A stretch of 64,000 nt of DNA from Chloroflexaceae bacterium (GTDB lineage: Bacteria > Chloroflexota > Chloroflexia > Chloroflexales > Chloroflexaceae). Made by a program: the position numbers and the translations under genes. The stretch is from positions 56,516-120,515 of the forward strand of contig DAOTVB010000015.1 of assembly GCA_034436755.1 (NCBI GenBank), in the 5' to 3' direction. This document shows, piece after piece, positions 8,636 through 55,291 of this stretch. The notes beneath the pieces are model-generated. The model had not been told where the DNA came from. It worked only from the letters and a program-made list of their open reading frames with translations, and searched no databases. The stretch's first letter is position 1. Each line of letters starts with the position of its first letter.

Positions 8636-8650
8636 CTGGTTTATTCATAT

Positions 8651-8735
8651 GACAGGACTTACGCGGTGCGCATTCACACGGGACATTTCACCCGATGGCA
8701 GCACGGTACGCACTCCTCCGCCGGGCAACGATCCC
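8651..8735. repeat. Degenerate, hairpin-less copy of the modular repeat element
   Basis: Contains gacaggacttacgcggtg, then gatggcagcacggtacgcactcctccgccgggc. These match modules of full copies (cf. 36440 and 23948). Confidence 0.5.
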
Positions 8736-23863: not shown

Positions 23864-23879
23864 AACAGTAATCTCCTCC

Positions 23880-24110
23880 ACCGTATATAACGCGAAGTAC
23901 GCGGTGGGTCTGCAAACTGGGCGTTTGCGCCCGGTAATGGCCCGATTCGCCTGCGGCAGCATGGTACGCTCTTTTCTTTTTCACAAAAAAATTCACAACG
24001 TGAATTTTTTTGTGAAAAAGAATGATATCTTCCGCCCTGCCGGAGGCGGAATCTCCTGTCGGGTCAACAACCGCGTAAGTCGTGTAAATAACGCGAGTTA
24101 CGCGGTGGGT
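23880..24110. repeat. Modular palindromic repeat element, copy 3, forward orientation; hairpin 23979-24015
   Basis: Contains cgcctgcggcagcatggtac, the core ttcacaaaaaaattcacaacgtgaatttttttgtgaa and the 3' arm cttccgccctgccggaggcggaatctcctgtcgggtcaac...ccgcgtaagtcgtgtaaat. Confidence 0.9.
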
Positions 24111-24345
24111 CCACAAACTGGACATTTGCCCAGGTGGAAGCCCGATTCGCCTGCGGCAGCATGGTACATTTTGAACTTTTTTCACAAAAAATTTGCACTG
24201 TGTGCAAATTTTTTGTGAAAAAAGAATGATATCTTCCGCCCTGCCGGAGGCGGAATCCCCTGTCGGGTCAACGACCGCGTAAGTCGTGTAAATAACGCGA
24301 GTTACGCGGTGAGCGTACACATCAGACGTGTACTTCCACAACGGC
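24111..24345. repeat. Modular palindromic repeat element, copy 4, tandem to copy 3; hairpin 24181-24218
   Basis: Same flanks as copy 3. The hairpin ttcacaaaaaatttgcactgtgtgcaaattttttgtgaa differs in its inner stem by a compensated change. Confidence 0.9.
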
Positions 24346-24400
24346 CGGCTTCGCCTGCGGCAGCATAGTTCGGTCTTTACGGCAAAGAAAAACCCCCAGC

Positions 24401-32139: not shown

Positions 32140-32994
32140 ATGGCCAGCATAAAAATTGTTACCGATAGTGCGGCTGATATTCCGCCGAGTCTGGCGCAGG
32201 AACTGGGAATAGAAATCGTTCCGCTGCGGCTTCACATTAATAATCAGATCTACCGCGCTGGCCTGGACATATCAAGTGAAGAATTTTACGAACTGCTGCA
32301 AAGCAACACCTGTGATATCGCAGTTTCGTCGCCGGGTGTGCTGGTCTTTGAGCATCTCTACCGCCGGCTGGTGCTCGAGTATGAGCATGTGTTCTCGATT
32401 CATCTGAGTGGCCGCCTCGGGGGGGTGTTTCGGGATGCAAATCAGGCGCGGACTAAGCTGCCCGCCTCGCTAACCCGGATCGAGTTGATTGACAGCAAAT
32501 CGGCTTCGATGGGCATGGGGCTGGTGGCGCTGACGGCAGCACGCGCGGCGCGGAATGGCGCTTCGCCCGCCGAGGTCCGGCAACTCATCAACGATATGAT
32601 CCAGCATACGCATGTGGTCTTTTTTGTTGATACTATGGAGTATCTGGAACGGGGCGGACGCCTGACCGTTGCGGCCTCAGTGCTCGGTTCCATGCAGCGG
32701 ATCAAGCCGCTCATGATCCTCGACGAGGGCGAGATTGTGCCCTACGAGCGCACCCGTACTCGCGCCAAGGCGATTGAGGGGTTGTATACCTTTATCGAGG
32801 ATTTTCCCAGGGTACAGGAGGTGGTCGCCCTCTACTCAACCACACCGGAAGATATTGAGAAGCTGCTGGAGAAGGTTGAGCCGATCTTCCCCCCGGAGCG
32901 CGTGCAGGCGGTTCAGTTTAGCCCAAGCATTGCCGCCCATCTGGGCCCCGGCGCGATGGGGGTGGCGGTTTTTGAGGGCCTGGAGGAAGCTTGA
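32140..32994 (+). CDS. DegV-family fatty-acid-binding protein (FakB-like) 1
   Basis: MASIKIVTDSAADIP ... is a typical DegV N-terminus. Confidence 0.8.
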   Translation: MASIKIVTDSAADIPPSLAQELGIEIVPLRLHINNQIYRAGLDISSEEFYELLQSNTCDIAVSSPGVLVFEHLYRRLVLEYEHVFSIHLSGRLGGVFRDANQARTKLPASLTRIELIDSKSASMGMGLVALTAARAARNGASPAEVRQLINDMIQHTHVVFFVDTMEYLERGGRLTVAASVLGSMQRIKPLMILDEGEIVPYERTRTRAKAIEGLYTFIEDFPRVQEVVALYSTTPEDIEKLLEKVEPIFPPERVQAVQFSPSIAAHLGPGAMGVAVFEGLEEA

Positions 32995-33037
32995 GGCATG
33001 TTGTAATGCCCGCTGTACGCCGTGCGAGGAGTTATGT

Positions 33038-33880
33038 GTGGTTAAGATAGTTGTCGATAGTACCGCCGATATGCCGGCGGAGTTGTGTCGTGAGTTCGAT
33101 ATACAGGTTGTACCGCTGCAGGTACGCTTTGACGATGAGGCCTTTCGTGATGGCATCGATATCAGCCGGGATGAGTTTTACCAGCGCTTAGTCACCAGCC
33201 CGACCTTGCCCACCACCTCGACACCGCCACCCGGTGCCTTTGTCGAGGTTTATGAACGGCTGGCCCGGGAAACCGATGCAATTCTGGCGATTCATCTGTC
33301 GGGGAAGTTGAGTAGCACGGTTGGGGTTGCGCGCAAGGCGGCGGAGATGGTACCCCAGGTGCGGATCGAAGTGGTCGACTCGCACTCGCTGGCAATGGTG
33401 ATGGTCTATATGGCGGTTGCAGCCGGGGCCGCCGCGCGCAATGGCGCGGGAGTGGACGAACTGATACCGCTGGTCAACCGGGTTCGGGAGCGCGCGTTTT
33501 TCTATGTCGGGCTGGATACGCTGCACTATCTGGAGAAGGGCGGGCGGATTGGCCGGGCGCGGGCGTTCCTGGGAACGCTGCTCAATGTGAAGCCTTTGAT
33601 CGAGGTGCGCGACGGTGAGGTGCATCCGCTGGAGCAGGTACGCACCGGCAAGCGGATGATGGCCCGCCTGGTTGAACTGGTGCAGGCGCAGACCCCCGTG
33701 GAAGAACTGGCGCTGCTCTACACGTCACAGCGGGAGAAGGCCGAGGCGCTGCTTGAGCAGATTGTGGCGCAGCAGATCTTTCCCCGCGAGCGCATCCAAC
33801 TGGTCCAGATGGGCGGAGTTATCGGCACCCACGCCGGGCCGGGTGCGGTTGGCGTTGTTGGCATCAAGCGAGAGGAGTAA
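33038..33880 (+). CDS. DegV-family fatty-acid-binding protein (FakB-like) 2; GTG start
   Basis: VVKIVVDSTADMP... with a GAGGAG RBS 8 nt upstream. The ORF-track start at 32735 is an overextension running through the DegV1 3' end in another frame. Confidence 0.75.
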   Translation: MVKIVVDSTADMPAELCREFDIQVVPLQVRFDDEAFRDGIDISRDEFYQRLVTSPTLPTTSTPPPGAFVEVYERLARETDAILAIHLSGKLSSTVGVARKAAEMVPQVRIEVVDSHSLAMVMVYMAVAAGAAARNGAGVDELIPLVNRVRERAFFYVGLDTLHYLEKGGRIGRARAFLGTLLNVKPLIEVRDGEVHPLEQVRTGKRMMARLVELVQAQTPVEELALLYTSQREKAEALLEQIVAQQIFPRERIQLVQMGGVIGTHAGPGAVGVVGIKREE

Positions 33881-33889
33881 CGCGGAGCG

Positions 33890-35044
33890 ATGCAGGCGTT
33901 TTTTGAGTTTGGGTTGGGGACGCGGGTACTCTACGACGTTGGCCTGGCGCGTGAGTGTGCGCAGGAGATAGAACGAATGGGCGCGCAACGCGTGCTGCTG
34001 GTAACGGACACGGGTATTGCCACCGCCGGGCTCCTTGAGCCGATCCAGGCAAGCCTGAGTAGTGCCGGTACCCATGTTGTAATCTTCGACCAGGTACCCG
34101 CGAACTCATCGGTCCAGGTGGTTGCGGATGGTGCGGCGCTGGCGCGTGAACAGGAGATTGATCTGCTGGTGGCAGTTGGTGGCGGTAGTCCGCTCGATAC
34201 GGCCAAGTGTATGCGCATTCTGCTGACGCATGGCGGCGATCTGCTGGACTACCAGGGCTACAATGTGCTGGAGCAGCCGCTGCTGCCGATGATTGCGATC
34301 CCCACGACCGCCGGAACCGGGAGCGAAGTGTCGCCCTTTGCCGTGATCCGCGATGAGACCACGCAGGTCAAGCTAACCTTTGCCAGCCCCTTCCTGGCCC
34401 CGACGCTGGCAATCCTCGACCCGGAACTGACCCGCACCCTGCCCGCGACCCTGACCGCCGCCACCGCGCTGGATGCATTGACGCATGCTATCGAGACGAT
34501 TGCCTCGAGCGAAAGTAACCCGATCAGCGATAGCCTGGCACTCGCGGCGATTGAGCGGGTCGCTCACCATCTGCGGGATGCCCTGCAGGATGGAACGAAT
34601 ATGGTCGCACGGGGGAACCTGCTGCTGGCCTCCTGTATGGCCGGGATCGCATTCTCAAGCGGGTTTCTGGGCGTGGTGCATGCGCTGGCGCACGCAACCG
34701 GGGGCAAGTTCTGTGTGCATCACGGGATGGCGAATGCGCTTTTTCTGCCCCACGGGATGCAGTTTAATGCGGCAGTTGTGCCGGAGCGTTATGTCAAAAT
34801 TGCGCAGGCCCTGGGCGTACCGAGCGCAGGCCGCAGCCAGGCCGAGGTGATTACGGACGGCATCGCGGCGGTACGCGCGTTATGCGCCGACGCGGGCATG
34901 CCCACCCGCCTGCGCGATCTGGATATACCGGAAGCGGCACTGGAGGAACTGGCCGAGATAGCGCTGACCGATGCCGCCATCTTCACCAACCCGCGTAGTG
35001 CCACACAAGAAGAGTTGCTGGAACTGCTGCGCGCGGCCTGGTGA
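33890..35044 (+). CDS. Iron-containing alcohol dehydrogenase
   Basis: GGGSPLD NAD motif; His-rich metal site (HALAHATGGKFCVHHGMANA). Confidence 0.85.
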   Translation: MQAFFEFGLGTRVLYDVGLARECAQEIERMGAQRVLLVTDTGIATAGLLEPIQASLSSAGTHVVIFDQVPANSSVQVVADGAALAREQEIDLLVAVGGGSPLDTAKCMRILLTHGGDLLDYQGYNVLEQPLLPMIAIPTTAGTGSEVSPFAVIRDETTQVKLTFASPFLAPTLAILDPELTRTLPATLTAATALDALTHAIETIASSESNPISDSLALAAIERVAHHLRDALQDGTNMVARGNLLLASCMAGIAFSSGFLGVVHALAHATGGKFCVHHGMANALFLPHGMQFNAAVVPERYVKIAQALGVPSAGRSQAEVITDGIAAVRALCADAGMPTRLRDLDIPEAALEELAEIALTDAAIFTNPRSATQEELLELLRAAW

Positions 35045-35084
35045 ATTGGGCGGGGCAGAGCGCCAGACATCGCGGGCCACATTT

Positions 35085-36278
35085 CTACTCCGTGGGAAAC
35101 AATACACTCCCCGGCTCAACACTGCTCCCCGCCGGCAGCGTAACCCCCGGCCCCAGGACCGCACCGCGCCGGCAGAGCACCTCCGGATCAAGCCGGTCAC
35201 CCACCTGGGCGGTAGACTGCACATCGGCAAAGATGCGCGACGGCAGCCGGGTAGCCGTTCCCAGACGCGCGCCGGTATCAAGCAGACTGTGCTGCACCAG
35301 GCAGTCATCCCCAACCACCGCACCGGCTCCCAGCATCGCATGTTCGATCACGCAGTTAGCGCCCACCGTAACTCCCGCCGCCAGCACCGAGCGTTCGATA
35401 ACCGTGTTTGCGCCGATCACAACGCCATCGCCAATAATTGCCGGTCCCGTGATGCGACTACCTGCGCCGATGCGGGCCTGCCCAACCGCTACTGCTCCGT
35501 TGAGCGTACTGGTCGCCGCGATGGTTGCTGCCGGATGCTGAACGGCGGGCCGGTCAGATTGCTGCTCCAGCAGAAACGCATTGGCAATCAGCGCCTCCCA
35601 GGGCGTACCCACCGGCACCCAGTGACCGGCGCAGAGCTGGTAGTGAACGGGATGCTCCGCGGCCAGCAGCGCAATCAGATCGGTCAGTTCATACTCGCCA
35701 CGGGGAGAGGGCCGGATACGCTCCAGCAGGGGGAAGACCGCCGCGTCGAAGTGGTAGATACCGGGATTCGCCAGCGCGCCGGGTTGCGCGTGGGGCGGCT
35801 TCTCGATAATGCGCTGCACCCGGTCATCGACAATATCCAGAATGCCAAACGCCTGCGGATCAGCCACGCGCAGGGCAGCCATGCTGTAACGCTCCCGGCA
35901 GATGTTCTCCAGGTCCACCCGGCTGATCAGGTTATCGCCGTAGAGCAGGAAAAAGGGCGCGTCTATCCGGCCCGCGACGGCCTGCAGCGCACTGGCGGTG
36001 CCGTTGACCTGCTGCTGCGGTACGTAGCGCAGTTCCATCCCCCGGTAGTCTGTACCAAAGTGCGCCTGGATATCGGCGGCACGGTAGCCCACCACCAGCG
36101 TGACATGCGTAACCAGTCCAACCAGTTCATCGAGGATATGGGCCAGCAGCGGACGACCAACCAGCGGAATAAGCGGCTTGGGCCGGTGCAGCGTGAGGGG
36201 CCGGGTACGCCGCGACTCACCGGCGACCAGGATCACGGCGTGGCGGGTCGAACATTGATCCGGGTTTGTCAATGGCAT
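35085..36278 (-). CDS. Sugar-phosphate nucleotidyltransferase: N-terminal NTP-transferase domain plus C-terminal left-handed beta-helix
   Basis: ILVAGESRRTRPLT (G-x-G-T-R-like) N-terminus; hexapeptide repeats at the C-terminus. Confidence 0.75.
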   Translation of the reverse strand: MPLTNPDQCSTRHAVILVAGESRRTRPLTLHRPKPLIPLVGRPLLAHILDELVGLVTHVTLVVGYRAADIQAHFGTDYRGMELRYVPQQQVNGTASALQAVAGRIDAPFFLLYGDNLISRVDLENICRERYSMAALRVADPQAFGILDIVDDRVQRIIEKPPHAQPGALANPGIYHFDAAVFPLLERIRPSPRGEYELTDLIALLAAEHPVHYQLCAGHWVPVGTPWEALIANAFLLEQQSDRPAVQHPAATIAATSTLNGAVAVGQARIGAGSRITGPAIIGDGVVIGANTVIERSVLAAGVTVGANCVIEHAMLGAGAVVGDDCLVQHSLLDTGARLGTATRLPSRIFADVQSTAQVGDRLDPEVLCRRGAVLGPGVTLPAGSSVEPGSVLFPTE

Positions 36279-36439
36279 ATGCGCGCCTCACAGAGCCGGT
36301 ACTACTGCTTGTGCCAGGTTTGTGAAAAAAATAGCGGTGACTGACACGACATTATACTGCAAAAGCAGCTAATGAAAAAGCCCACTGCGGAGGTAGCACA
36401 CCGCAATGCGCTTCTGATTGGACGGGGGGAGCAGGCTAA

Positions 36440-36665
36440 TAATGAACAGGACTTACGCGGTCAGTTCCAAATCCGGCATGTGCCTGAATAAACGGCCCGA
36501 CTCGCCTCCGGCAGGGCGGAATAGAACATTCTTTTTCCGGAACATGTGGCACGGTGTGTCACATGTTCCGGAAAAAGACAGAAAAGTACCACGCTGCCGC
36601 AGGCGAAATACACCATTATCGGGAGCAAACGACCCGTTTGAATGCCCACCGCGCGCGTCGTGTAA
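36440..36665. repeat. Modular palindromic repeat element, copy 5, inverted orientation; hairpin 36535-36572 of entirely different sequence
   Basis: Contains aacaggacttacgcggtcagttccaaatccggc, cgcctccggcagggcgg, the core ttccggaacatgtggcacggtgtgtcacatgttccggaa between ttttt and aaaaa, and gtaccacgctgccgcaggcg. Confidence 0.85.
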
Positions 36666-37253
36666 TTAATAATCCGGGGTAATCTGCTGGGCCAGCAGGA
36701 TCGCCTGGGCGACTTCCTTCATCGACTTGCGGCTATTCATTGCGAGTTGTTGAATGCGGCGAAATGCCTCCGCCTCGCGCAGTCCCTGGCTATCCATCAG
36801 GTAGCCCTTGGCGCGTTCGATCACCTTGCGCGTCTCCAGCCGCTCTTGCAGTTGCGACAACTCCTGCTTGCGCGCATGCTGCTCCTGCCAGCGCGCACAG
36901 GCGACCTCAATGATCGGCATCAAGGTGCTCTCGTGGATCGGCTTGACCAGAAAGCCCAGCACACCGGCGTCACGCGCGCGGGATACCAGTTCCCGGTCAC
37001 TGGAGTTCGTAATCAAGATAACCGGAGCCAGCCCTTCATTCTGGAGCAACCGGGCAACCTCAATGCCGTCCATACGCGGCATATCGCGGTCGATTAACAC
37101 CACATCGGGCCGAAGCTGGCGGATCAAGAGAATGGCGCTCATCCCATCGCCGGCCTCACCAATAACCAGGTAGCCCAGATGCTCCAGCGTTTTGCGCAGG
37201 TTGGCGCGAATGGTCGACTCATCTTCCGCTATCAAAACGCGTTTGCCTGTCAT
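36666..37253 (-). CDS. ANTAR-domain response regulator (AmiR/NasR-like RNA-binding antiterminator)
   Basis: A REC domain (VLIAEDE...VLIDRDMPRMDG) is followed by a C-terminal ANTAR (LETRKVIERAKGYLM...EAFRRIQQLAMNS). Confidence 0.8.
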   Translation of the reverse strand: MTGKRVLIAEDESTIRANLRKTLEHLGYLVIGEAGDGMSAILLIRQLRPDVVLIDRDMPRMDGIEVARLLQNEGLAPVILITNSSDRELVSRARDAGVLGFLVKPIHESTLMPIIEVACARWQEQHARKQELSQLQERLETRKVIERAKGYLMDSQGLREAEAFRRIQQLAMNSRKSMKEVAQAILLAQQITPDY

Positions 37254-37600
37254 TGATCGATGCCTCCAAACATCAATAAGCCCCTTGTCGCGCCGGTTCT
37301 ATGGGCGGCAAGGGGCAACCATGCACCAGATTCAGACATCGTAGCTTACAGGCCAGTATACCTGGTTGCTGCGGCGACAACAAGAGCCACAATATACAAA
37401 GTCACACCAGCGGCACTTGTGCAGGAGAATGGAGGAGTGGTGACATACAGATGTTATGCATTGCCCTGTGGACGGAGCTTTGCGCCTCCGGCAAGACGGA
37501 AGATTCCATAATAGAGCAACCCTCCATTGGTCGTATGCCGCCTTCAGGCGGTTGAGAGCGAATCCCGCAGAATTAGTTCACAACCAATGGAGGATTGTTA

Positions 37601-37822
37601 TATACAGGATTTACGCGGTCGGTTCCAAATCAGGCATCTACCTGGACAACCGGCCCGATTCGCCTCCGGCAGGGTGGAAGCCAACAGATCTTTTTCACAG
37701 AAAAATTCACGTTGTAAATTTTTCTGTGAAAAAGATAAAGAAGTACCATGCTGCCGCAGGCGAAGCTGCCGTTCACCGGGTGAAACGTCCGGTTTGATGA
37801 ACCACCGCATAACTCGTGTAGT
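37601..37822. repeat. Modular palindromic repeat element, copy 6, inverted orientation; hairpin 37694-37730
   Basis: Contains acaggatttacgcggtcggttccaaatcaggc, cgcctccggcagggtgg, the core ttcacagaaaaattcacgttgtaaatttttctgtgaa and gtaccatgctgccgcaggcg. Confidence 0.85.
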
Positions 37823-38515: not shown

Positions 38516-38902
38516 GGCCACTTCCTCCTCTGCTATGCAACACGAGCTTTACCCTTATCCGCTACTGCTACCGTCAGCCGGGGCCCGCACGAGACGAGCC
38601 GCGCAGAGCTAAATGCCCGACCCTACCGGGCACCTCCGTCTTCGGGTTGATCTCCCTGATAAAAAGAGCAACCGGCGGCAGCAGGACAGCACGCTGGGGG
38701 CGCACAGGCCGCGATAAACTGGTTCTGTAACGGTCAATGCGCTCTGGCCTATTGTAACAAAGTTTTCCGCATCCGTTGTCAGACCACAACATACGCAAAG
38801 GGGTCGCGTCAATAACGCGACCCCTTTGAACTGCTCCCAGCACGCCCGGCAGAGCGGACGACCGGGCGTGTCATACCATTTGCAGACCCTGGTCAGATGG
38901 TT

Positions 38903-39472: not shown

Positions 39473-39722
39473 AACCAACTCCTCCTTATACATAAACCGG
39501 CCACGGATAAAGATATGCGTAACTGCCACAGACCGGACGGCGTTATGGTTGCGCCACACGCCGTCATTAATCTGCAGCGCTCCTTTGCATATTGTAGCAA
39601 AAACTGGCACCTTTTGTACAGTTATGCAATTTTCTCGTCTGCTGTGTATGTCCCGACGCGCTTCACTCTATTAGCTGTATTATATGATACGCAATACTGT
39701 GCATAAACGTTGCATACGGCCA

Positions 39723-39765
39723 GGGGTTACGGGTTACGGGTTACGGGTTACGGGTTACGGGTTGG
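39723..39765. repeat. (GGGTTAC)5-6 heptanucleotide microsatellite, telomere-like and G-quadruplex-capable
   Basis: Direct reading: ggggttac gggttac gggttac gggttac gggttac gggttgg. It lies in the divergent intergenic region between the Yip1-B and rph starts. Confidence 0.95.
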
Positions 39766-39799
39766 CGTGTGGGGGACGGCTATGTTATGATGCATTTCA

Positions 39800-39920
39800 T
39801 GCACAGGAGTTACGTGGTGCGGCCTATTCTGGCCTGGTGACAACCCTGAACGCCGGCTGCGCCTGCGGCAGGATGGTACTCTTTTTCTGCCACCCTGCCG
39901 GCGGCGAAAAGCACTCGCTC
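39800..39920. repeat. Degenerate copy of the repeat element lacking the large hairpin
   Basis: Contains cacaggagttacgtggtg ... cgcctgcggcaggatggtactctttttctgccaccctgccggcggcgaaaag. Confidence 0.5.
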
Positions 39921-39971
39921 GGGGAGAACCACGCAACTCGTATCGGTCACGAACACTATGTAGAGGAGCGA

Positions 39972-40706
39972 ATGATGCCACGTCACGATGGGCGACGGCC
40001 GGAGCAGTTGCGCCCGGTGCAAATCACGCCCGAGGCGGCACCCTACGCCGAGGGTTCGGCCCTGATCGAAATGGGTGCCACGCGGGTGCTCTGTACCGCC
40101 AGTGTTGAGCCCACAATTCCCGGCTGGCTGCGCGGGCAGGGGCGCGGCTGGATCACGGGTGAATATGCGCTGCTGCCCCGCTCAACCCTTACCCGCACCC
40201 GCCGCGAGCGCAATGGTGCCGGCGGACGCACGCAGGAGATCCAGCGGCTGATCGGGCGTGCCCTGCGTGCCGCAGTTGACCTGACGGTGCTGGGCGAGCA
40301 GATGATCATCGTTGACTGCGATGTGCTGCAGGCCGATGGCGGGACACGGACTGCCGCGATTACGGGCGGGTATGTGGCCCTGGCTCTGGCCCTGCGGCAC
40401 ATGCATACTGCCGGCCGGTTAGAGATCAACCCGCTGCACCAGGCCATTGCGGCCGTCAGCGTCGGGGTGGTGGGCGGCGAGATTCTGCTGGACCTGGACT
40501 ACAGCGAGGACAGTCAGGCGGATGTCGATTGCAACGTGGTGCAGACCGGCGCGGGCGAACTGGTGGAAGTCCAGAGCACGGCGGAAGGCACACCTATCAA
40601 GCGCGAGCAACTGGATCGGCTGCTGGACCGCGCCGGGCAGGGCATCACCGAACTGCTGGCGCTGCAGCGCGCAGTCCTGGAGCTACCGCAGTCCGCTATC
40701 GAGTAA
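39972..40706 (+). CDS. rph: Ribonuclease PH
   Basis: RPDGR..LRPV ... [14 protein letters not shown] ... [12 protein letters not shown] is the canonical RNase PH pattern. GAGGAG RBS. Confidence 0.9.
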
Positions 40707-42160: not shown

Positions 42161-42345
42161 ATTTTATAACTTTTCACCGTCACCCGCCTTACCTGGTCGG
42201 TTCCAAACGGGGCGTTTCACCCGGTGAACGGCAGCAGCGCCTGCGGCAGCATGGTACACTTTGTATTCTTTTTCAAGAAAATTCACAATGTGAATTTTCT
42301 TGAAAAAGATCGGGGTTTTGCTACCCTGACGGAGGCGAAATCTCC
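42161..42345. repeat. Repeat element copy 8; hairpin 42272-42304
   Basis: cgcctgcggcagcatggtac, then ttcaagaaaattcacaatgtgaattttcttgaa, then ctgacggaggcgaaatctcctgccgggttgatgaccgcg. Confidence 0.85.
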
Positions 42346-42560
42346 TGCCGGGTTGATGACCGCGCAACACCTGTTACAGTTACCCGCCTTACGCAGTGGG
42401 CATTCAAATCAGGCAGTTGCCTCTATGAACGGCACGATTCGCCTGCGGCAGCATGGTACTTGATTTATCTTTCTCACAAAAATGTTGCACTTTATGCAAC
42501 ATTTTTGTGAGAAAGACGGTCCTCTTTCACCCTGCCGGAGGCACTGTCCACTGACAAACA
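42346..42560. repeat. Repeat element copy 9; hairpin 42472-42512
   Basis: cgcctgcggcagcatggtac, then tctcacaaaaatgttgcactttatgcaacatttttgtgaga, then caccctgccggaggcac. Confidence 0.85.
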
Positions 42561-42860
42561 CAAGATCGCGTAACGCACATCAGCACGGGTCGTTTCGCGT
42601 TTTTCGCTCATTTCGCGGCGTTCGTGGTCCAAACTTTCACCGCGCAACGCCTGTTACAGTTACCCGCCTTACGCGGTGGTTCATCAAACGGGGCGTTTCA
42701 CCCGGTGAACGGCAGAAGCACCTGCTGCCGCAGGTACTTGATCTATACTTTTGCAGCAATGTTGCGCCTTACGCAACATTGCTGCAAAAGGTTGGAAATC
42801 CGCTTGCGTCGTGTTGCAGCTTACACGATTTCGTGTTATTCTATTGTTACGTTACCGTGT
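42561..42860. repeat. Repeat element copy 10 plus an accessory module; hairpin 42749-42789
   Basis: The accessory module gtttcgcgtttttcgctcatttcgcggcgttcgtggtccaaa is also present at 48085-48135. Core: ttttgcagcaatgttgcgccttacgcaacattgctgcaaaa. Confidence 0.8.
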
Positions 42861-45427: not shown

Positions 45428-45469
45428 GGTTAGGGGCAATACTTTTCAAATAGCAGAACCTGTGCGGTA

Positions 45470-45640
45470 GCATGACAAACCGGGTGGTTGCTCCGATACA
45501 GAACGGTTCCGCCTGCCGCAGCATGGTACGTTTTTATCTTGTTTCACAAAAAATTTTTCACAAAGTGAAAAATTTTTTGTGAAACAAGGATGATTTCTTC
45601 CACCCTGCCGGAGGCGGTATCCTCTTCCAGGTAAGGAATC
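45470..45640. repeat. Repeat element copy 11, inverted; hairpin 45541-45585
   Basis: ccgcctgccgcagcatggtac, then gtttcacaaaaaatttttcacaaagtgaaaaattttttgtgaaac, then ccaccctgccggaggcgg. Confidence 0.85.
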
Positions 45641-45976
45641 ACATAAGCCCGGTTATTTGAAAGATATTGAGGTTAGGGGACAGGGGACAGGTCATAGGGG
45701 ATAGCTCTCAGGTGTCGGCTTTTTGTGGTAGGGACGCACAGAAACGCGTCCGCCGCCCGTCCTGGTGCGGAACATGGTTTCGGGAGCGGCAGTCTCTGTT
45801 GGTCTCGCCAACCGCATTCCAAGCAAAACACATCTGGCGCATCGTTATCGACCAGACAATTTGTTCTTTGTCCTTTGTTTGTTTGTTCTTTCGCTAAATC
45901 GCTCTTCCATGTGGGCCGCTTCATGCTATAATACCCTGCTGGAGATGAAGGTTGTGTAGATGAAAGAGGGATTAGC

Positions 45977-47659: not shown

Positions 47660-47880
47660 GCCATTTGTCATTTGACAGGAGTTACGCGGTTGAGATCCAA
47701 ACCGGACGTTTGAACCGATGGAAGTCTGTTTCGCCTGCGGCAGCATGGTACATTTTGATCTTTTTTCACAAAAAATTTGCACAAAGTGCAAATTTTTTGT
47801 GAAAAAAGATGGTTTCTTCCGCCCTGCCGGAGGCGGAATCTCCTGTCGGGTCAACGACCGCGTAAGTCGTGTCAAATGAC
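47660..47880. repeat. Repeat element copy 12; hairpin 47765-47803; the 3' module contains a perfect 17-bp palindrome
   Basis: cgcctgcggcagcatggtac, then ttcacaaaaaatttgcacaaagtgcaaattttttgtgaa, then cttccgccctgccggaggcggaatctcctgtcgggtcaacgaccgcgtaagtcgtgtcaaatgacacgacttacgcgg. Confidence 0.9.
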
Positions 47881-48150
47881 ACGACTTACGCGGTCGGCAT
47901 GCAAACCGGGCGTTTGATCCGATGAACACCCGCTTCGCCTGCGGCAGCATGGTACTTGATCTTTCTTTTTCACGAAATGTTAGCTCGAAGAGCCAACATT
48001 TCGTGAAAAAGAAATGATATCTTCCGCCCTGCCGGAGGCGATAACCCCCGCCAAACGCGGGATCGTCTTATACCTATCAGCACTGGCCGTTTCGCGTTCT
48101 TCGCTCATTTCGCGTTGTTCGTGGTCCAAATCCCCACCGCGTAACTCGTG
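47881..48150. repeat. Repeat element copy 13 plus an accessory module; hairpin 47969-48007
   Basis: cgcctgcggcagcatggtac, then ttcacgaaatgttagctcgaagagccaacatttcgtgaa, then cttccgccctgccggaggcg, then gtttcgcgttcttcgctcatttcgcgttgttcgtggtccaaa. Confidence 0.85.
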
Positions 48151-48239: not shown

Positions 48240-50732
48240 TTATTTCTTGCGCCGGACCCAGCCGCGTTTAGGCTCCTCAACGCTCTGGCGCAATTTCGCC
48301 AGATCATTCTGGATCTCGTCCGGCTCCGGTTCCGGTTCACGCTCGGGCGGTTCCTGCGGCTGGCGCGGCTCCTCCTGCGCCGCCAGATCGCTCAATGAGA
48401 TCCGTTTGCCCGTCTGCACCTTTTCCGCACCCGTGGTCGTCTCGGCTGTCGGTTCGGGCAGATCCACCGGCCGGGGCGAGGGCGGTTGCTCCTCCTGCGC
48501 CGCCAGGTCACTCAGCGAGATCCGTTTGCCCGGTTTGATCTTTTCCGCACCCGTGGTCGTCTCGGCTGTCGGTTCGGGCAGATCCACCGGCTGGGGGGGG
48601 GATGGTTGCTCCGGTTGCTCCTCCTGCGCCGCCAGGTCACTCAGCGAGATCCGTTTGCCCGGCTTAAAGCGGGTGGTTTCGGGCGTCTCTGCGGCCGCGG
48701 GCGGTTCCTCCAGCATCGGGGCGAAGGGCTGATCCGCCGGGAGCATTTCCGCACCAGGCTGCTCCGGCAGCGGCGGCATAGCCGGCTCGGGTTGCGCCGG
48801 TTCAACCGGTTCAGCCACCGGCGCGCCCGCCTGACCATTAACCGACCGCAGTGCTGCCGGCCGCGCCACACCCACCTGTTCATCTACCACGGGGGCGGAG
48901 ATGACCGCATCAACATAGGGACTGGGAGCCTGCGCCGCACCCAGCGCGACTAACCACGCCCAGATCTGTGCGCAACGCTGCGTGGCATCCTCCGGCAGGC
49001 GCAGCGGTCGCCCGCGCGCATCGATGACCACACCCAGCGCGCTCCCCTTGATGGCGGCAATATCGGTCTGAACTTCTTCCCCCGGTTCATTCTGCCCGAT
49101 CCGCACATTGGCCGCCGGTCGCAGGGTTAACTGCCCGCTGCTGCTCTGATCCAGCCGCAGACGGGCAATCTGCCCATGCCGCACCGTTACCCGCCGCGAC
49201 TTGCCGCGCCGGGAAGTCAACTCGGCCTCAACCGCGACCTCACCGGGCTTGCCCTCCCCCAGCGGTACCACGCAGGTTGCCAGCGGCACATTACGCAGCA
49301 GATCACGTTCAAAGAGCGTCACCGCCGCATCGGGATTGAGTTTTGCCAGCACCCCACAGGCCGGCAAGAGCCCCAGGATATCGAGATGCAGATCGAGCGC
49401 CAGCAGACTCTCCCCAGTGGTCGGCTGGAGGACATCCAGCAACATCAACGCCGCCATACCGGGATGCGGCGCATGCGCCAGCACCCCGCCACCCGCGATC
49501 ACCAGATCATAGTCCAGGTCAGGATCTTCATCGGTGAGGGTTTCCAGCAGGAGTGCCAGCACCTCGCGGGTTATGGCCTGTTCGATAAACACATCTTCGC
49601 GGCTGGCGGGCAACATCTGCGGGCGCAACAGCTTATTCAGCAGCCAGTGCGTCAGGTCGGCCTCGCTGATGGGGAAGGGCAGCCAGCGGGCAATATTGGC
49701 CACACCGCGCGCTTTGAGCAGGTTGGTAATGCCATACGCGGTGCCACATGCGCCCAGGATCGATAGGGTATAACTGCCGGGGCCGGCGTGGAAGGCGCTG
49801 CTGCCGGCCGCGCCGACATCCAGCGTTAACACCTTGCGGCTATTCCGCTCGGCGATAAAGCGGGTCATCAGCCCGGACATACTACAGACCGTTGTCACCG
49901 GCACATGACACATGCGACGCAACGTCGGGAGACCGGGCAGACGGGTGAGGACGCGCTCGTCGTACAGACGACTCAGCGCCTCGCGGGCGGGCTCGAGCCG
50001 CTCCTGCGTCAGCGATGGTCGCACATTATCTACCACCAGCGTCTCGGCCCGCCCAGAGAGCGCCTCGACAACCTGATCGCGGGCATCGCTGTTGCCGGCA
50101 TAGATCACCGGACGGGCCATCAGGTTCTGGCTTTGCTGGCCGCTGGCATCAACCGAGGTACGCAGCGCGGTTAACCCCACGATATGCGCCAGACGGTGCA
50201 GCGCATCGGTTGCGCCACCCTCAAGCCCCCCCGCAATAAAGACGGCATCCGGCTCCAGGGAGAGCATCGCCTGGATCTGCCGCACAATCCAGGAAGCGCC
50301 GCCGCCACTGGAGCGCATCATGGCATCATCAAGCGTAATCACCTGCAGAATGCTGGTGTAGGTGCTGCGACAGGCATGCAGCGCACTCCGGGCCGAGACA
50401 TCGCTGGCAATTGCCGTCACCACCAGCGCCAGCGTGCCGGTCGCACTGGTGACACAGATCAGCCGGTCAACGCCGTCACGCTCGTTATTCTGCGGCATCA
50501 GCAGTTGACCTTCGCGCAGCAGTTGCCGCCCGATAGTCTCGCTGATCTGCGCGGCGGCTTCCAGGATGCCGAACAGGGCATTCTGGTGTGGCGGCTCCAG
50601 GCTGCTCGGCACCTCGGCCCGACCAATCATGCGGTGCTCGCCATCAACCGTATCAACCAGCGTGACACGCGTGATCAGGCTGCCAATTTCGGCAATAAGG
50701 ATCGAATCAGGTGGTGGTGGTGTATCAGGCAT
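48240..50732 (-). CDS. GlmL/MutL-type (PF13941-like) actin-fold ATPase domain protein with C-terminal 3x tandem ~38-aa repeats and a basic tail
   Basis: The N-terminal ILIAEIGSLITRVTLVD phosphate-1-like motif is followed by an about 600-aa actin-fold-like region. The C-terminus carries PVDLPEPTAETTTGAEKIKPGKRISLSDLAAQEEQP x3 and ends ...KRGWVRRKK. The family assignment rests on pattern memory. Confidence 0.55.
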   Translation of the reverse strand: MPDTPPPPDSILIAEIGSLITRVTLVDTVDGEHRMIGRAEVPSSLEPPHQNALFGILEAAAQISETIGRQLLREGQLLMPQNNERDGVDRLICVTSATGTLALVVTAIASDVSARSALHACRSTYTSILQVITLDDAMMRSSGGGASWIVRQIQAMLSLEPDAVFIAGGLEGGATDALHRLAHIVGLTALRTSVDASGQQSQNLMARPVIYAGNSDARDQVVEALSGRAETLVVDNVRPSLTQERLEPAREALSRLYDERVLTRLPGLPTLRRMCHVPVTTVCSMSGLMTRFIAERNSRKVLTLDVGAAGSSAFHAGPGSYTLSILGACGTAYGITNLLKARGVANIARWLPFPISEADLTHWLLNKLLRPQMLPASREDVFIEQAITREVLALLLETLTDEDPDLDYDLVIAGGGVLAHAPHPGMAALMLLDVLQPTTGESLLALDLHLDILGLLPACGVLAKLNPDAAVTLFERDLLRNVPLATCVVPLGEGKPGEVAVEAELTSRRGKSRRVTVRHGQIARLRLDQSSSGQLTLRPAANVRIGQNEPGEEVQTDIAAIKGSALGVVIDARGRPLRLPEDATQRCAQIWAWLVALGAAQAPSPYVDAVISAPVVDEQVGVARPAALRSVNGQAGAPVAEPVEPAQPEPAMPPLPEQPGAEMLPADQPFAPMLEEPPAAAETPETTRFKPGKRISLSDLAAQEEQPEQPSPPQPVDLPEPTAETTTGAEKIKPGKRISLSDLAAQEEQPPSPRPVDLPEPTAETTTGAEKVQTGKRISLSDLAAQEEPRQPQEPPEREPEPEPDEIQNDLAKLRQSVEEPKRGWVRRKK

Positions 50733-50810: not shown

Positions 50811-51461
50811 TCAAAAGGTCCAGGTCACCAGAAACTCGAGACGCTCACTCAGCGCCGCCAGGTAGGTGCGCAACGCCCCGGCCAGAAAGAAGCCCAGTGC
50901 AACCATCAGGAGCCAGTAGCCGACATGGGCACTGCCCGCCACCAGCCGCCCCAGACCCGTATCGCGCCGCACCGTAAAGTAGAAGTAGCTCAACGTCAGG
51001 ATCACGCCTATAGCCAGCACCGCCGTGCCGATAAGCTGCGGCAGGGTGTTTCCGGCTGGTTGCACCGTATCGATCCACTGCGGGTAGAGCGTCCCCACCA
51101 GCACGCCACCCAGCGCCAGAGCCGCGCCGACCCCAAAGAGCAGCGCCAGGGGAATATTTGCCAGCCAGGAGAAGCCCTGCCGCCCGGTAATCCGGGGCAG
51201 CAGCAGCAGACCCAGGATAAACGGCACGAGCGTGAGGTAGAGATCGAGACTCTGCGGGTTCTCCGCCCCCAGCAAGACTTGAACGACCGCCGGCCAGAGC
51301 ACCTGATGGTAGAGCACCACAAAGGCATAGCCCAGCGACACCCCGATAAACAGGTATTGCGCCAGCCGGAACAGCGGATTATTTTCCGCCCAGACGATCC
51401 GGCTGAACACAAACAGGGTCAGCACAACGCCAACAATTTTGACTACAAGCGCCGTCGCCAT
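50811..51461 (-). CDS. Polytopic integral membrane protein, ~6 TM, unknown function
   Basis: 216 aa, almost entirely hydrophobic helices. Its start overlaps the upstream giant gene stop by 1 nt (TAATG). Confidence 0.5.
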   Translation of the reverse strand: MATALVVKIVGVVLTLFVFSRIVWAENNPLFRLAQYLFIGVSLGYAFVVLYHQVLWPAVVQVLLGAENPQSLDLYLTLVPFILGLLLLPRITGRQGFSWLANIPLALLFGVGAALALGGVLVGTLYPQWIDTVQPAGNTLPQLIGTAVLAIGVILTLSYFYFTVRRDTGLGRLVAGSAHVGYWLLMVALGFFLAGALRTYLAALSERLEFLVTWTF

Positions 51462-54400
51462 TACTCCTCGCTCTCCGGGTGCAGCTTCGGCTTCGGCTGG
51501 AGCAGCAGGCCGGCAATGCCCCCGACGATAATCAGGACCACAAAGACCAGCGCGGCGAAATGCTGCAATCCACTGGAGCGAATAGCCGCCACATCATCCA
51601 CACCGCCGCCACTGGCCGCCGCATAATTTAGCGCGCCCTGCCGCCCGACCAGTTGGTAGACATTCGGGTAGCGCAGGTAGGGTTGCACCACCGGCGCGGT
51701 CTCAAACGGCAGCAGGAAGGCCATCGGCACGTCGGGGGTGCTGGTATGCACCTGCTCAATCCAGCCCTGCACATCCTGCGGCTGATCGGCCATAATCAGG
51801 ATCAGATCAAAGTCGGCAACCGTTTCCAGTTGAGTCTGTTCGACCATCCAGCTTCTGGTAGCATCCGCACCCGAGAATGTTCTGAATGACTCGGTAAAAT
51901 TCTGCTGAACCAGACGGCGCAGGGCAAACTCGCCTCCCGGCTGGTAGCCCATCAGCACATAGTCCCGCCCCCCCAGGTCTGCGGTGCGCTGCTCGTCGGT
52001 ATTGTAGCCGGCGGCGCGCAGGGGATCACGAAAGTTGAAGGAGAGCAGTGTGCCCTGCGGATCGGTGCTGAGCACCACAAAGCGCACATTCTGCTCAATC
52101 AGATGCTGCGTAACGGCGGTCTCGAGCGGACGCAGTTCGCTGCTGCGCTGGGCATCCCACTCGTAGGCCACCAGCACAACATCCTCCTCCGAAAGCCCGG
52201 CGACAATGCTGGACAACTCACCGGCAGCGGGGGCCGCCGGATTGGCACTTCCCAGAAACCCTGTTACGGACGGAACAAACAGCCCAATCAGCAGCGCCAG
52301 TGCCAGCAACAGGTAGAGGACGCGCTCCAGACCAACCCGCCGCCAGCGCGCCGGTTCGGCGGGTGCCGGCGTGAGGGTCGTCTCCGGAAATGGTCGGGCC
52401 ACCAGGCGTTGCAGCAGCGCGGCCGCTTCCATCTGGGCCGGGCTGCGCGTGAAGGTTGGCCGGGGCAGCACGGTTGGTGAGGTGGTAGTTGCCACGACTG
52501 GTCCTTCGGCCTCTTCTTCGCCCACACCCAGGTTCGACAGCCAGTCTACCTGCTGCGACTCTTTGGTGCTGACGCGGGGCTCCGGTTCGGTGGGCCGCAA
52601 CCACTCCGGCAGATCCGCTCCACCCAGGAAGCTGCTGCCCTCATCAGCGGTACCGCGTGGTTGCACCGCAGCGGGAGCGGGGGCCTGCGCTACCGGCTCC
52701 TCCCGCAACCAGTCCGGAACATCCTCCTCCGACCCTTCATCCTGCAGCCAGGACGGCAGTGCGTCATCAACCGGCTCTGCGCCGGATGGTGCCGGTGGCG
52801 GCGGGGGTGCGGACGAGCGCGGCGGGAGTGCCGGCTCTTCTAACTCGGTATCGGCACCCTGCAACCAGGAGGGCAGCCCGCCGGTCTGGTCCGCCAGGGG
52901 ATCGTTGGACTCGTCGGTCATCCAGGGCGGCAGATCGCTGCTATCGGTTGTGTCGGTTGTGTCGCTGCCGGCAGCCGGAGGTGCGCTCTCGCCACCAGTC
53001 AGCCAGGCAGGGATATCTTCGGCTCCGGTATCCGCCGGCCCAGCCGGTTCCGCCGTTGCTGCGTCATCACGCAACCAGTCGGGAACATCCGCATCCGGGG
53101 CCGCCGGCGCAGACGGTGGGGCCGCCGACCCGGTATCCGCCGGTCCAGCCGGTTCCGCCGTTGCCGCGTCATCACGCAACCAGTCGGGAACATCCACATC
53201 CGGGGCTGCCGGCGCAGACGGTGGGGCTGCCGACCCGGCATCTCGCAGCCAGTCCGGCTCTTCGGCTTCCGGCAGTGCCTCGGCTGTCGGCGCAGACGGT
53301 GCATCGGCGGATAGCCAGTCAGGCAACTCCTCTTTCTCGACCACATCGGGCATGCGGGGCGGTTCCGCGTCCGACTCCGCGCTCACATCAGCCCGCAGCC
53401 AACTGGGCAAATCTTCCTGGGAGGCTGCCGCACCGGTTGAACCTACATTATCCGCCAGCCAGTCAGGGAGTTCCGTTTCGGCAGCCGCGTCTGCTGGCGC
53501 GGGTGTATCGGCCTCTGACACGGATGGCGGTTCATCTATCGACTGCAACCAGTCAGGCATTGCCCCGGCGTCCGCCATCGCGCCGCCCTCTTCGGGTGGC
53601 GCAGCCTCATCACTCTCGGGCATGGGGGGTGGTTCATCAACGCCCCGCAGCCAACTGGGTATCGCGGCATCTTCCGGCGCGGTTGGGGCTGCGGGCACCT
53701 CGGACTGAGGAGACCAGTCCGGCGTACTGCCGGCTTCGGTCGGCGACTCATCTGCGGAAGCACCACTCAGCCAGGAGGGCATCTCCGGCTCGCTGCCCGA
53801 CGCGGCGGGCTGGTCAAACCAGTTGGTCGTATCCCCCGCTCCGGTTGATGGATCTTCAGGAGTCGCGCCACTCAGCCAGGCGGGCATTTCCGGCGCACCA
53901 CCCGGCTCGCTGCCCGACGCGGCGGGCTGGTCAAACCAGTTGGTCGTATCCCCCGCTCCGGTTGATGGATCTTCAGAAGTCGCGCCACTCAGCCAGGCGG
54001 GCATCTCCGGTTCGCCGCCCGACGCGGTGGGCGCGGTAGTTTCCGGCGGTGCCCCCGGTTCACCCTGGAACCAGTCGGGGATACCGGTTTCTGTGACACC
54101 GGGGGGTTGCTCCGGCGACTGCAACCAGTCCGGCGACTCAGCCGATGATGGTGGTGCTGCCGGCATATCCAAACCAGTTTCGGCAATATCGCGGGAGACT
54201 TCATCGGGCGAGATATCGCGCAGCCAGTCGGGGATACCGGGCTCATCGCCGGCAGGGGATGCGGACGGCGTATCCGCCGGTGCTGCCTCTGCAAACCAGT
54301 CCGGCGACTCTGCGGCCCCAGGTGGCGTGGTGGGAGATCCACCTTCCGTCGCCGCAATATCGCGGGCCATCTCGTCCGGCGAAATATCGCGCAGCCAGTC

Positions 54401-55291
54401 GGGGATACCGGGCTCTTCGGATAATTCCTCCTGGTGCTGGTGGGCTGCGTCCGCAGCCGAAGCCGCGCCGGCCACCATCCAATCAGATGACTCCGTTTCT
54501 GCGGGGGCGGGTGGCGTGAACGGCTCCGGTTCCGCGCTATCGCGGGCTACTTCGTCCGGTGAGATATCCCGCAGCCAGTCGGGCACACCGGTATCACCCT
54601 CACCCTCTGGGCGCTCCGCCTGCTCGGCAGGGGCTGCGGTTGGGCCACCCATCTCCGGTTGCTCGGCAGGCGCAGGCGCAGACTCGGCATCATCTTCCCG
54701 GCCCAGACTGCGCAACCAGTCGGTTGCGCCGACGGGCATCTGCACCCGTGACGCAGGCTGATCCCCGGCTTGATCGGCCGCCGCTGCTTCGGTGGGGAAG
54801 CTATCGGCAGCCTCCGCCGGTGCCGACTCCTCCGGCTGGGCAGTTGCGCGGAGCCAGTCCGGCATTTCTGCGTCATCGGGCTGCGAGCTATCAGACGGGG
54901 CAGCCTCCGCCGGCAGATCGGACGACTGCGCGGCCGTCAGACTGGTGAGCCAATCCGGCTGATCATCAACCGGCAGCGGCTCGTCCTCTTCCATTGCCCC
55001 GATATCACTCTGCAGGTCACGCAGCCAGTCCGGAATAGCCGCATCCGCAGCACTGGACGGGGCTGACTCCTCACTGCGGAACTGGTCAGAGTCCACCGCA
55101 GCCGCAGCCGCAGCCCCCTGCAACCAGTCCGGCACCGCCTCCTCCGGCTCATCGGGTGGGGCGGCCTGCTCCTCGGGCGGAGCGGCCCGCGAAGGCGGAC
55201 GGGGAGGTAGAGGTACGCCCCGCAGCCAGGGTGGCAGCCAGGTTGCATCGTCTGAGTCACCAAATTGCGATCCGCGAGATATCCGATCCAT
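51461..55291 (-). CDS. Giant acidic repeat protein (1276 aa): about 900 aa of low-complexity D/E/P/A/S-rich sequence with >25 [IL]PDW[LF] short-motif repeats, then a TM helix, an about 330-aa domain, a second TM helix and a short tail
   Basis: An uninterrupted ORF. IPDWLRDISPDE(V/M)ARD and related motifs recur every 25-40 aa, and near-identical 105-114-bp DNA repeats are present. The C-terminus carries two TM segments (VLYLLLALALLIGLFVPSV and FAALVFVVLIIVGGIAGLLL). Confidence 0.7.
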   Translation of the reverse strand: MDRISRGSQFGDSDDATWLPPWLRGVPLPPRPPSRAAPPEEQAAPPDEPEEAVPDWLQGAAAAAAVDSDQFRSEESAPSSAADAAIPDWLRDLQSDIGAMEEDEPLPVDDQPDWLTSLTAAQSSDLPAEAAPSDSSQPDDAEMPDWLRATAQPEESAPAEAADSFPTEAAAADQAGDQPASRVQMPVGATDWLRSLGREDDAESAPAPAEQPEMGGPTAAPAEQAERPEGEGDTGVPDWLRDISPDEVARDSAEPEPFTPPAPAETESSDWMVAGAASAADAAHQHQEELSEEPGIPDWLRDISPDEMARDIAATEGGSPTTPPGAAESPDWFAEAAPADTPSASPAGDEPGIPDWLRDISPDEVSRDIAETGLDMPAAPPSSAESPDWLQSPEQPPGVTETGIPDWFQGEPGAPPETTAPTASGGEPEMPAWLSGATSEDPSTGAGDTTNWFDQPAASGSEPGGAPEMPAWLSGATPEDPSTGAGDTTNWFDQPAASGSEPEMPSWLSGASADESPTEAGSTPDWSPQSEVPAAPTAPEDAAIPSWLRGVDEPPPMPESDEAAPPEEGGAMADAGAMPDWLQSIDEPPSVSEADTPAPADAAAETELPDWLADNVGSTGAAASQEDLPSWLRADVSAESDAEPPRMPDVVEKEELPDWLSADAPSAPTAEALPEAEEPDWLRDAGSAAPPSAPAAPDVDVPDWLRDDAATAEPAGPADTGSAAPPSAPAAPDADVPDWLRDDAATAEPAGPADTGAEDIPAWLTGGESAPPAAGSDTTDTTDSSDLPPWMTDESNDPLADQTGGLPSWLQGADTELEEPALPPRSSAPPPPPAPSGAEPVDDALPSWLQDEGSEEDVPDWLREEPVAQAPAPAAVQPRGTADEGSSFLGGADLPEWLRPTEPEPRVSTKESQQVDWLSNLGVGEEEAEGPVVATTTSPTVLPRPTFTRSPAQMEAAALLQRLVARPFPETTLTPAPAEPARWRRVGLERVLYLLLALALLIGLFVPSVTGFLGSANPAAPAAGELSSIVAGLSEEDVVLVAYEWDAQRSSELRPLETAVTQHLIEQNVRFVVLSTDPQGTLLSFNFRDPLRAAGYNTDEQRTADLGGRDYVLMGYQPGGEFALRRLVQQNFTESFRTFSGADATRSWMVEQTQLETVADFDLILIMADQPQDVQGWIEQVHTSTPDVPMAFLLPFETAPVVQPYLRYPNVYQLVGRQGALNYAAASGGGVDDVAAIRSSGLQHFAALVFVVLIIVGGIAGLLLQPKPKLHPESEE

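Follow-up and report, generated by a model that had tools for sequence, protein, structure and literature searches.

The 785-nt spacer between a TPR gene and uvsE is best read as an array of three MITE copies, of which the third is damaged and possibly followed by the stub of a fourth, and the family that they belong to is abundant in Kouleothrix-like Chloroflexi. We give this reading a probability of roughly four in five. The window (the whole stretch of DNA analysed, 64 kb) contains about 14 copies at nine sites (16 nhmmer segments). What is notable in the family is (i) that its arrays are built on a shared heptamer and (ii) that each unit carries a self-symmetric, hypervariable palindrome; otherwise it is a MITE, a known kind of element.

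The array between the TPR gene and uvsE

With the last position of the TPR ORF at 42088 and the first of uvsE at 42874, the spacer agrees with the intergenic region described in an earlier, sequence-only reading of this DNA (the first-pass annotation). The Pfam assignments of the two genes come from gene calls on L092, a contig of the same strain, and the window differs from GCA_046541795.1, also the same strain, by 3 mismatches in 8589 bases. The only ORFs in the spacer are mechanical ones of 68–126 aa that cross parts of the repeats. Three perfect hairpins are present (42267–42309, 42468–42516 and 42748–42790), and the 20-mer CGCCTGCGGCAGCATGGTAC stands before the first two of them. As a core motif this 20-mer occurs 13 times in the window with three or fewer mismatches, against 0.02 occurrences expected. 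Given the recurrence of the 20-mer, the hairpins and the modules discussed below, the spacer repeats are real and far beyond chance.

All parts of the array lie on the + strand. Copy 1 (42181–42373; nhmmer 186.6 bits, profile positions 5–217) is a full unit. Motif matches place its 5′ terminal inverted repeat (TIR), CACCCGCCTTACCTGGT, at 42181–42197 and box 1 at 42238–42257; after the first hairpin come box 2 (42324–42336), a short ‘A’ tail and the 3′ TIR (42359–42373). The heptamer on its left, TCACCGT (42174–42180), is read from the sequence as a flanking repeat and matches the array spacer TTACAGT at 5 of 7 positions, a likeness that is weak when taken alone. TTACAGT itself follows copy 1 at 42374–42380, its length being that of the target-site duplication of the family, and an identical second spacer occupies 42654–42660.

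Between the two spacers lies copy 2 (42381–42653), a long-tail variant delimited by motifs and nhmmer. Its 5′ TIR (42381–42397), box 1 (42440–42459), palindrome (the second hairpin) and box 2 (42530–42542) are followed by a ‘C’ tail (42543–42638) and the 3′ TIR (42639–42653). The C tail is found again at 48040–48135 and in loci L038, L025, L058 and others. One of the modules proposed in the first-pass annotation is part of this long alternative tail; it is present at 42592–42633, about 15 nt from where it had been placed, and at 48089–48130.

Copy 3 (42661–42813) is damaged, and nhmmer matches it only to profile positions 8–158. A 5′ TIR (42661–42677) and the third hairpin are retained; box 1 (42718–42737) has been altered to GCACCTGCTGCCGCAGGTAC, in which 12 bases of the normal box are replaced by their inverse complement. 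The rearranged 5′ box noticed earlier is therefore present as a 12-nt inversion. Box 2 and the 3′ arm are missing, and the copy ends in a degenerate 3′ TIR, TCCGCTTGCGTCGTG, at 42799–42813. Thus the three head-to-tail copies with hairpins of the earlier reading are real, except that the third is not a full one. Beyond it, at 42814–42836, the spacer-like heptamer TTGCAGC (42814–42820) precedes TTACACGATTTCGTGT; here the stub of a 5′ TIR seems to be joined to that of a 3′ TIR, possibly what remains of a fourth copy.

Two further arrays lie on the + strand of the window. The first (23878–24380) consists of two full units and a third, truncated one, with TAAATAA as the spacer at each junction (24070 and 24274), and the second (47662–48150) joins a full unit to a C-tail unit whose 3′ TIR is at 48136–48150. 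Solitary full copies are found at 5677–5897 (− strand; flanks TACATAA and TAAATAA), at 37597–37822 (− strand; with the ‘B’ tail described below) and at 45439–45660 (+ strand), the last belonging to a subfamily with longer terminal repeats (TTTCAAATAG… and …TATTTGAAA). A copy without the central palindrome (39799–39944, + strand) is intergenic and lies upstream of RNase PH, which starts at 39975 by the L092 gene call. A degenerate copy (8640–8860, − strand) and a single chimeric unit with a B tail (36442–36671, − strand) make up the remainder.

Architecture of the unit and evidence for its transposition

A profile built on six window copies was searched against the window and 91 further loci (660 kb in total) and gave 222 non-overlapping matches, 110 of them full length and mostly 200–235 bp. 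Seventy-five full copies align end to end in a single register with the same order of parts: 5′ TIR, 5′ arm, box 1, palindrome, box 2, 3′ tail and 3′ TIR. The unit measures 205–215 bp, rising to about 270 bp where the C tail is present. Its TIRs of 15–17 bp have the form (A)CAGGAG-TTACGCGGT … ACCGCGTAA-CTCCTG(T), and the base pairs of the core TTACGCGGT/ACCGCGTAA are each formed in 54–72 of the 75 sequences. The 5′ arm (about 42 nt) contains a small CAAAC…GTTTG hairpin. Box 1, TCGCCTGCGGCAGCATGGTAC, and box 2, TTCCGCCCTGCCGGAGGCG, are nearly invariant in the 75-copy alignment and face each other with a conserved G·G mismatch. Conservation is highest in these internal boxes and lower in the terminal repeats, even across genera; boxes more conserved than ends are unusual for a MITE. 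The predicted fold of one unit is a rod (−112.5 kcal/mol; z = −13), and 79% of the cells in the alignment pair in this rod structure, against about 42% with the partners slid.

Within this frame the units vary: there are three 3′ tails and several 5′ arm types, and the hairpin may be present or absent. Among 114 copies defined by anchor motifs, the tails fall into length classes of about 22, 42 and 95 nt (20–29 nt, n = 72; 40–49 nt, n = 28; 90–99 nt, n = 11). The B tail (40–49 nt) reads as the reverse complement of one 5′ arm type. The C tail, about 95 nt from box 2 to a normal 3′ TIR, occurs in about 10% of copies. We rejected the idea that it is an internally deleted second unit, since its interior aligns to the unit no better than shuffled sequence does (local alignment scores of 20–22; shuffles, mean 18–19 and maximum 31–34).

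In an exact-match scan for box 1 that covered one genome per species, only genomes of Chloroflexaceae and Roseiflexaceae were found, five in all: F17_50 (DAOTUI01), SRR4030105_bin.95, Kouleothrix sp. STL-CHL26 (JAXLWP01), SZAS-1 and SMAG_U9509. In the last three the relatives are shorter, at about 170 nt, and combine the same terminal repeats and an identical box 1 with a box 2 that is related and a palindrome with a GC tip. A literature search found no paper with the box 1 sequence and no description of Kouleothrix repeats, and the MITE family is apparently undescribed so far.

Direct repeats, taken as exact matches of at least 5 bp or matches of at least 7 bp with no more than one mismatch, flank 30 of 42 solitary full copies; they are 5–9 bp long, most often 7 bp. 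When flank partners were shuffled 2000 times, the number was 2.0 ± 1.4 and never exceeded 8. The other 12 solitary copies have no flanking repeat. The repeats fit a palindromic target TNANTNA (TCACTTA, TGAATAA, TATGTGA, TGAGTGA, TAAATTA and TAATTGA). Orientation relative to the flanking genes is random (18, 15, 14 and 14 over the four classes), and the copies are mostly intergenic: of 118 loci, each an array or a single copy, only 1 falls within a predicted gene. In the three orthologous pairs available, copy number differs at occupied sites only, and there is no clean empty site. The TIRs and target-site duplications bound the unit as a whole, so the family spreads mainly by transposition of a defined unit. 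The small size, lack of a transposase ORF, TIRs, target-site duplications and dispersed intergenic copies all agree with how bacterial MITEs are usually defined (Delihas 2011, PMC3184786), except that an autonomous partner was not found.

The search for such a partner took several routes. In the 660 kb, no spacing between TIRs longer than 300 bp recurs, and a 1497-bp spacing in L023 arises from a chance match within a dehydrogenase gene. The sequence that follows 28 orphan 5′ halves shows only truncations and nested insertions. An all-against-all protein comparison across the loci gave no multi-copy protein, Pfam found housekeeping genes and no transposase among 20 window proteins, and a plasmid search gave no match. 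We would expect a DDE-type transposase, acting in trans, to bind the terminal repeats and to cut with a 7-bp stagger.

The ISAs1 family has ends that begin CAGGG and direct repeats of 8–10 bp. The units start with CAGGAG, CAGGAC or CAGGGG and have only 4–5 terminal bases in common with it, their direct repeat is mostly 7 bp, and the host DNA searched yielded no transposase of this type. YhhI, the protein of the Escherichia coli H-repeat, an ISAs1-family element, matches DDE_Tnp_1_assoc and DDE_Tnp_1, and just past the yhhI stop the H-repeat reads …CTTGCCCTG-AATAC, or CAGGGCAAG on the other strand, a motif that was read beside yhhI and is not a mapped element end; CAGG alone is common to it and the unit ends. 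Assignment to the ISAs1 family is unsupported.

Array junctions and recombination between units

Arrays account for about a third of the loci (42 of 118) and reach 3–4 units. Every tandem junction in the family is made up of a 3′ TIR, a 7-nt spacer and the next 5′ TIR, and exactly 6+7+6 nt separate ACCGCGTAA from TTACGCGGT in 88 of 150 tandem junctions. This composition accounts for an accessory module that the first-pass annotation had described between the copies. The module is present at 42360–42399 and 42640–42679 (the second 4 nt from the position first given), but it is not an extra part: it consists of the ends of neighbouring copies with the spacer between them, essentially a piece of the longer conserved element, which is much the result that the first-pass annotation had named as counting against its own reading. 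In length and pattern the heptamer corresponds to the target-site duplication, and it is usually constant throughout one array, as with TAAATAA and TTACAGT above. Locus L038 reads TTAATTA-unit-TTAATTA-unit-TTAATTA, with the same heptamer at both flanks and at the junction.

Two ways of building such arrays may be considered: (i) repeated insertion of different units into one heptamer and (ii) local tandem duplication of a single inserted unit together with unequal crossing-over. The second could produce the identical spacers within arrays, and recombination has altered unit number between L038 and the window. It would also fit the alikeness of terminal repeats and spacers at successive junctions of the TPR–uvsE array and of the array at 23878–24380, where the pair 23878/24087 is 0.80 identical and each unit is the other's closest relative. 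In most arrays, however, the heptamer is constant but the terminal repeats change from one junction to the next, and neighbouring units are hardly more alike than any two members of the family (mean identity 0.63 for adjacent units versus 0.60 for all pairs). In the median adjacent pair, the first unit has 60 copies elsewhere that resemble it more than the unit beside it does, and in 17 of 19 adjacent pairs at least 10 copies elsewhere beat the neighbour. Copies 1 and 2 of the TPR–uvsE spacer are 0.54 identical, and 80 copies elsewhere are closer. We regard an origin of the arrays by duplication, in place of repeated insertion, as unlikely.

Because neighbours are no more alike than random members, arrays are better explained by growth through repeated insertion at the same heptamer; in the simplest reading, different family members appear to have inserted repeatedly into the same heptamer beside a resident copy. 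New copies would land preferentially in the heptamer that adjoins the resident one, which would generate the pattern heptamer-unit-heptamer-unit. Insertion does not account for everything. The two junctions of the TPR–uvsE array are identical at 40 of 42 positions and have the unusual variant CCCGCC, and in this array and the one at 23878–24380 the matching terminal repeats at successive junctions imply that local homogenisation or duplication acted besides insertion.

A precedent exists in the tandem transposon dimers that form by double insertion at one target site, as in the Drosophila P-element and hobo, with bacterial IS dimers also cited (McGurk and Barbash 2018, PMC5932611). As in the window family, the dimer junction consists of exactly one motif of target-site length that matches the insertion preference, and array size can afterwards be altered by unequal exchange. 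Those dimers were described in Drosophila, whereas the present arrays consist of bacterial MITEs, reach 3–4 units and occupy about a third of the loci. They are a clear example from bacteria of MITE arrays that rest on one common target heptamer and are then remodelled by recombination.

The remodelling can be seen where the window is compared with L038 (F17_50). This locus is 92–95% identical to window positions 32897–37432 and has two tandem units at the orthologous site where the window has one. The single window unit (36442–36671) is made of the 5′ part of L038 unit 1 and the tail of L038 unit 2, joined inside box 2, the expected product of a deletion by recombination between two copies of box 2. 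Another orthologous pair, L039 and L008, differs by one unit, the extra one being in L039. Family-wide, the linkage between the type of 5′ arm and that of 3′ tail is weak (adjusted mutual information, AMI, 0.136; permutation maximum 0.105), and hairpin type is linked to neither. Box-to-box recombination between neighbouring units may delete or swap halves and so form chimeric units, and such units could transpose again, giving the family its mosaic look. Arrays thus appear to act as sites that make chimeric units able to transpose afterwards.

The first-pass proposal amounts to a view in which there is no fixed mobile unit and the copies are assembled by local recombination from at least four independent, shufflable modules. 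Alternative tails, arm types and hairpin presence or absence, the weak linkage of the halves and the demonstrated chimera all suit that proposal, as do the two TPR–uvsE junctions that are 95% alike between units that are 54% alike. Against it, the order of parts is constant in all 75 full copies, the whole unit is bounded by TIRs and target-site duplications, the supposed accessory module is merely the junction of two units, and no module was found alone outside the copies. We consider assembly from independent modules very unlikely. What stands from the proposal is genuine recombination between units, along with the existence of alternative, weakly linked parts; what does not is the denial of a fixed unit. 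The mosaic look is real, yet transposition of a defined unit comes first and the mosaicism second.

The central palindrome and comparison with known elements

In 104 copies the arms of the central palindrome, mostly 22–25 bp long and 34% G+C, contain 97 mismatches in 2433 pairs, and 103 of the 104 palindrome sequences are different. The central helix pairs in 93% of the cells, with 22 of 26 pairs changed on both sides, and one-sided changes of the G–U type are almost absent. Outside the hairpin, the window copy at 36442 and L038 differ by 3 substitutions and 1 indel over 116 nt; inside it there are 6 differences in 45 nt, four of which form two symmetric pairs. Between L025 and L058, 5 of 89 and 9 of 114 positions differ outside the hairpin, and the whole hairpin apex has been swapped for another variant common in the family. 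In these two orthologous pairs, the palindrome changes faster than the rest of the element and does so symmetrically.

Two mechanisms are likely to contribute. One arm would template the other at replication by quasipalindrome template switching, as the two orthologous pairs suggest, and apical segments would be exchanged between copies. Selection for a perfect hairpin is the alternative to this account, and the data do not separate them. Copies that lack the hairpin are interpreted as secondary deletions because their deletion end points differ. Long hairpins number 230 in the loci, of which 156 are in detected copies and the rest are GC-rich or in related elements of other genera; no AT-rich palindrome stands alone outside the copies. 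The absence of stand-alone palindromes and the varied deletion end points led us to reject the hairpin as an independent mobile module or as the ancestral state.

It is conceivable, though we doubt it, that the boxes and palindrome constitute a working device, either a hairpin or cruciform needed in cis for movement of the element or a protein-binding or structural site adopted by the host, and that this device is actively re-symmetrised and diversified. If so, it would represent a new kind of self-correcting, fast-evolving palindrome on a bacterial transposon. In any case, the central palindromes provide a natural data set on the upkeep and change of long perfect palindromes.

A structured RNA is the other explanation that the hairpin invites: the element would be a non-coding RNA gene or cis-element of about 210 nt, its variable stem under selection on RNA folding. 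The very stable fold, the strong covariation of the central stem and the invariant boxes with their G·G mismatch, common to several genera, are compatible with this. The covariation is almost purely Watson–Crick, however, and two-sided changes without G–U intermediates fit a DNA palindrome better than an RNA stem. In addition, orientation to genes is random and the copies have target-site duplications, a scan of the spacer gave no promoter or terminator signal above chance, and Rfam 15 has no match at its gathering score in the whole window. At E ≤ 10, searched in two sub-regions, Rfam returned generic microRNA-type hairpin noise far below the gathering scores. Taken together, we judge an RNA function highly improbable.

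REP, BIME and REPIN elements are palindromes of 20–40 bp that are tagged with GTAG or CGTC, are associated with a RAYT and make no target-site duplication, and IS200/IS605-derived elements have neither TIRs nor target-site duplications and insert strand-specifically 3′ of a fixed tetranucleotide. That the present family is of this kind, moved as single strands by a Y1 (HUH) transposase, is scarcely credible: its intergenic, palindromic and clustered copies and BIME-like mosaic make-up are set against flanking direct repeats, which those systems do not make, a unit of about 210 bp with true TIRs, the lack of any strand or orientation bias and ends without a GTAG or CGTC tag. Integron attC sites were also rejected, as the ends are GCGTAAC/GTTACGC and not RYYYAAC/GTTRRRY, the units are too long and there are no cassettes between them.

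In enterobacterial BIMEs the constituent REPs are 20–40 bp and make no target-site duplications, and the BOX elements of Streptococcus pneumoniae contain a variable number of boxB parts. Like the window family, BOX elements and BIMEs are mosaic and clustered in intergenic DNA, with alternative or optional internal parts in a common frame. The frame of the window family is instead a TIR-bounded transposon with alternative tails.

The closest counterparts by description are Chunjie of Geobacter uraniireducens and Nezha of Anabaena/Nostoc, which are alike in small size, lack of a transposase gene, TIRs, direct repeats, intergenic position, multiple copies and a stable fold. Chunjie is 178–235 bp long with 21-bp TIRs, 9-bp direct repeats and ΔG of about −98 to −130 kcal/mol (Delihas 2011, PMC3184786), compared with 205–215 bp, 15–17-bp TIRs, 7-bp direct repeats and −112.5 kcal/mol for the window family. 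The likeness is one of description and no sequence relationship is expected, the partner IS of the window family not having been found. The window family differs from both in its frequent head-to-tail arrays on one heptamer, in boxes more conserved than the ends and in a near-perfect palindrome that is almost never repeated.

With about 1 copy per 4–5 kb in the window, the family makes up a sizeable share of the intergenic DNA in these activated-sludge and mat Chloroflexi, and it has practical effects on their genome data. ORF calls are inflated, as at 39684, where an ORF runs through a copy, and short-read assemblies are broken by the copies: the same-strain contigs L092 and L093 both end inside one.

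Contig ends and strain differences

For two contigs of the window's own strain (GCA_046541795.1), L092 and L093, the start of L093 and the ends of both (window positions 42686, 45462 and 45466) are contained in MITE copies, and thus the family fragments short-read assemblies. Where the window and L092 can be compared, only three differences are found in 8.6 kb, two of which fall within the region of a GC-rich hairpin at 38796–38828. These differences, at positions 38812 and 38814, lie in or beside the loop, and the hairpin stem is longer in L092 than in the window.

Reading frames in and around repeats

The mechanically called ORF at 39684–40706 traverses the MITE copy at 39799–39944 (plus strand), which lacks the central palindrome and lies upstream of the RNase PH gene. 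The 5′ end of this ORF is over-extended; the RNase PH domain begins only at residue 108 of the frame, and the gene as publicly annotated maps to 39975–40706 of the window. A short distance upstream of the same copy is a perfect heptamer run, (GGGTTAC) x5.7, at 39724–39763, and similar GGGTTA(C/G) runs are located near a MITE copy in two of the loci fetched for comparison (L025, ~1330–1420 and L058, ~2330–2420).

On the minus strand of the C tail, the long alternative 3′ tail of some copies (42543–42638 and 48040–48135), a conserved ATG starts a short reading frame, MSE[K/E]RET…. The frame extends into box 2 and is intact in all five copies read; it seems unlikely to be coding. Two long minus-strand ORFs, at 48240–50732 (830 aa) and 51461–55291 (1276 aa), enclose tandem repeats at 48368–48661, 53025–53242 and 53785–54010, with units of 120, 105 and 117 nt that are in-frame-sized, and the predicted products look like repeat-containing proteins.

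Other repeats and palindromes

An array of ~8 copies of a 38–58-nt unit (AGCCGTAGGGTGCATGCTATCCACCGTTCGGCTGTAT) occupies positions 1505–1895, between an aminotransferase gene (258–1478) and a Uma2-family gene (1948–2814). It is a repeat family distinct from the MITE, and has no match in Rfam. In L028, a minus-strand MITE copy at ~4900–5109 has its central palindrome interrupted by a nested insertion of ~120 nt. The insertion, bounded by GGGAAGCGGAA … TTCCGCTTCCC, is possibly another small mobile element. Kouleothrix sp. STL-CHL26 carries further recurrent long palindromes, attgtgttgcacgacgtggcgaagc… and ttttcttgtgcggcgcccggc…, at L003 2165–2207, L051 3827–3869, L060 1839–1881 and 2090–2134, and L067 634–678; these are unrelated to the MITE family.
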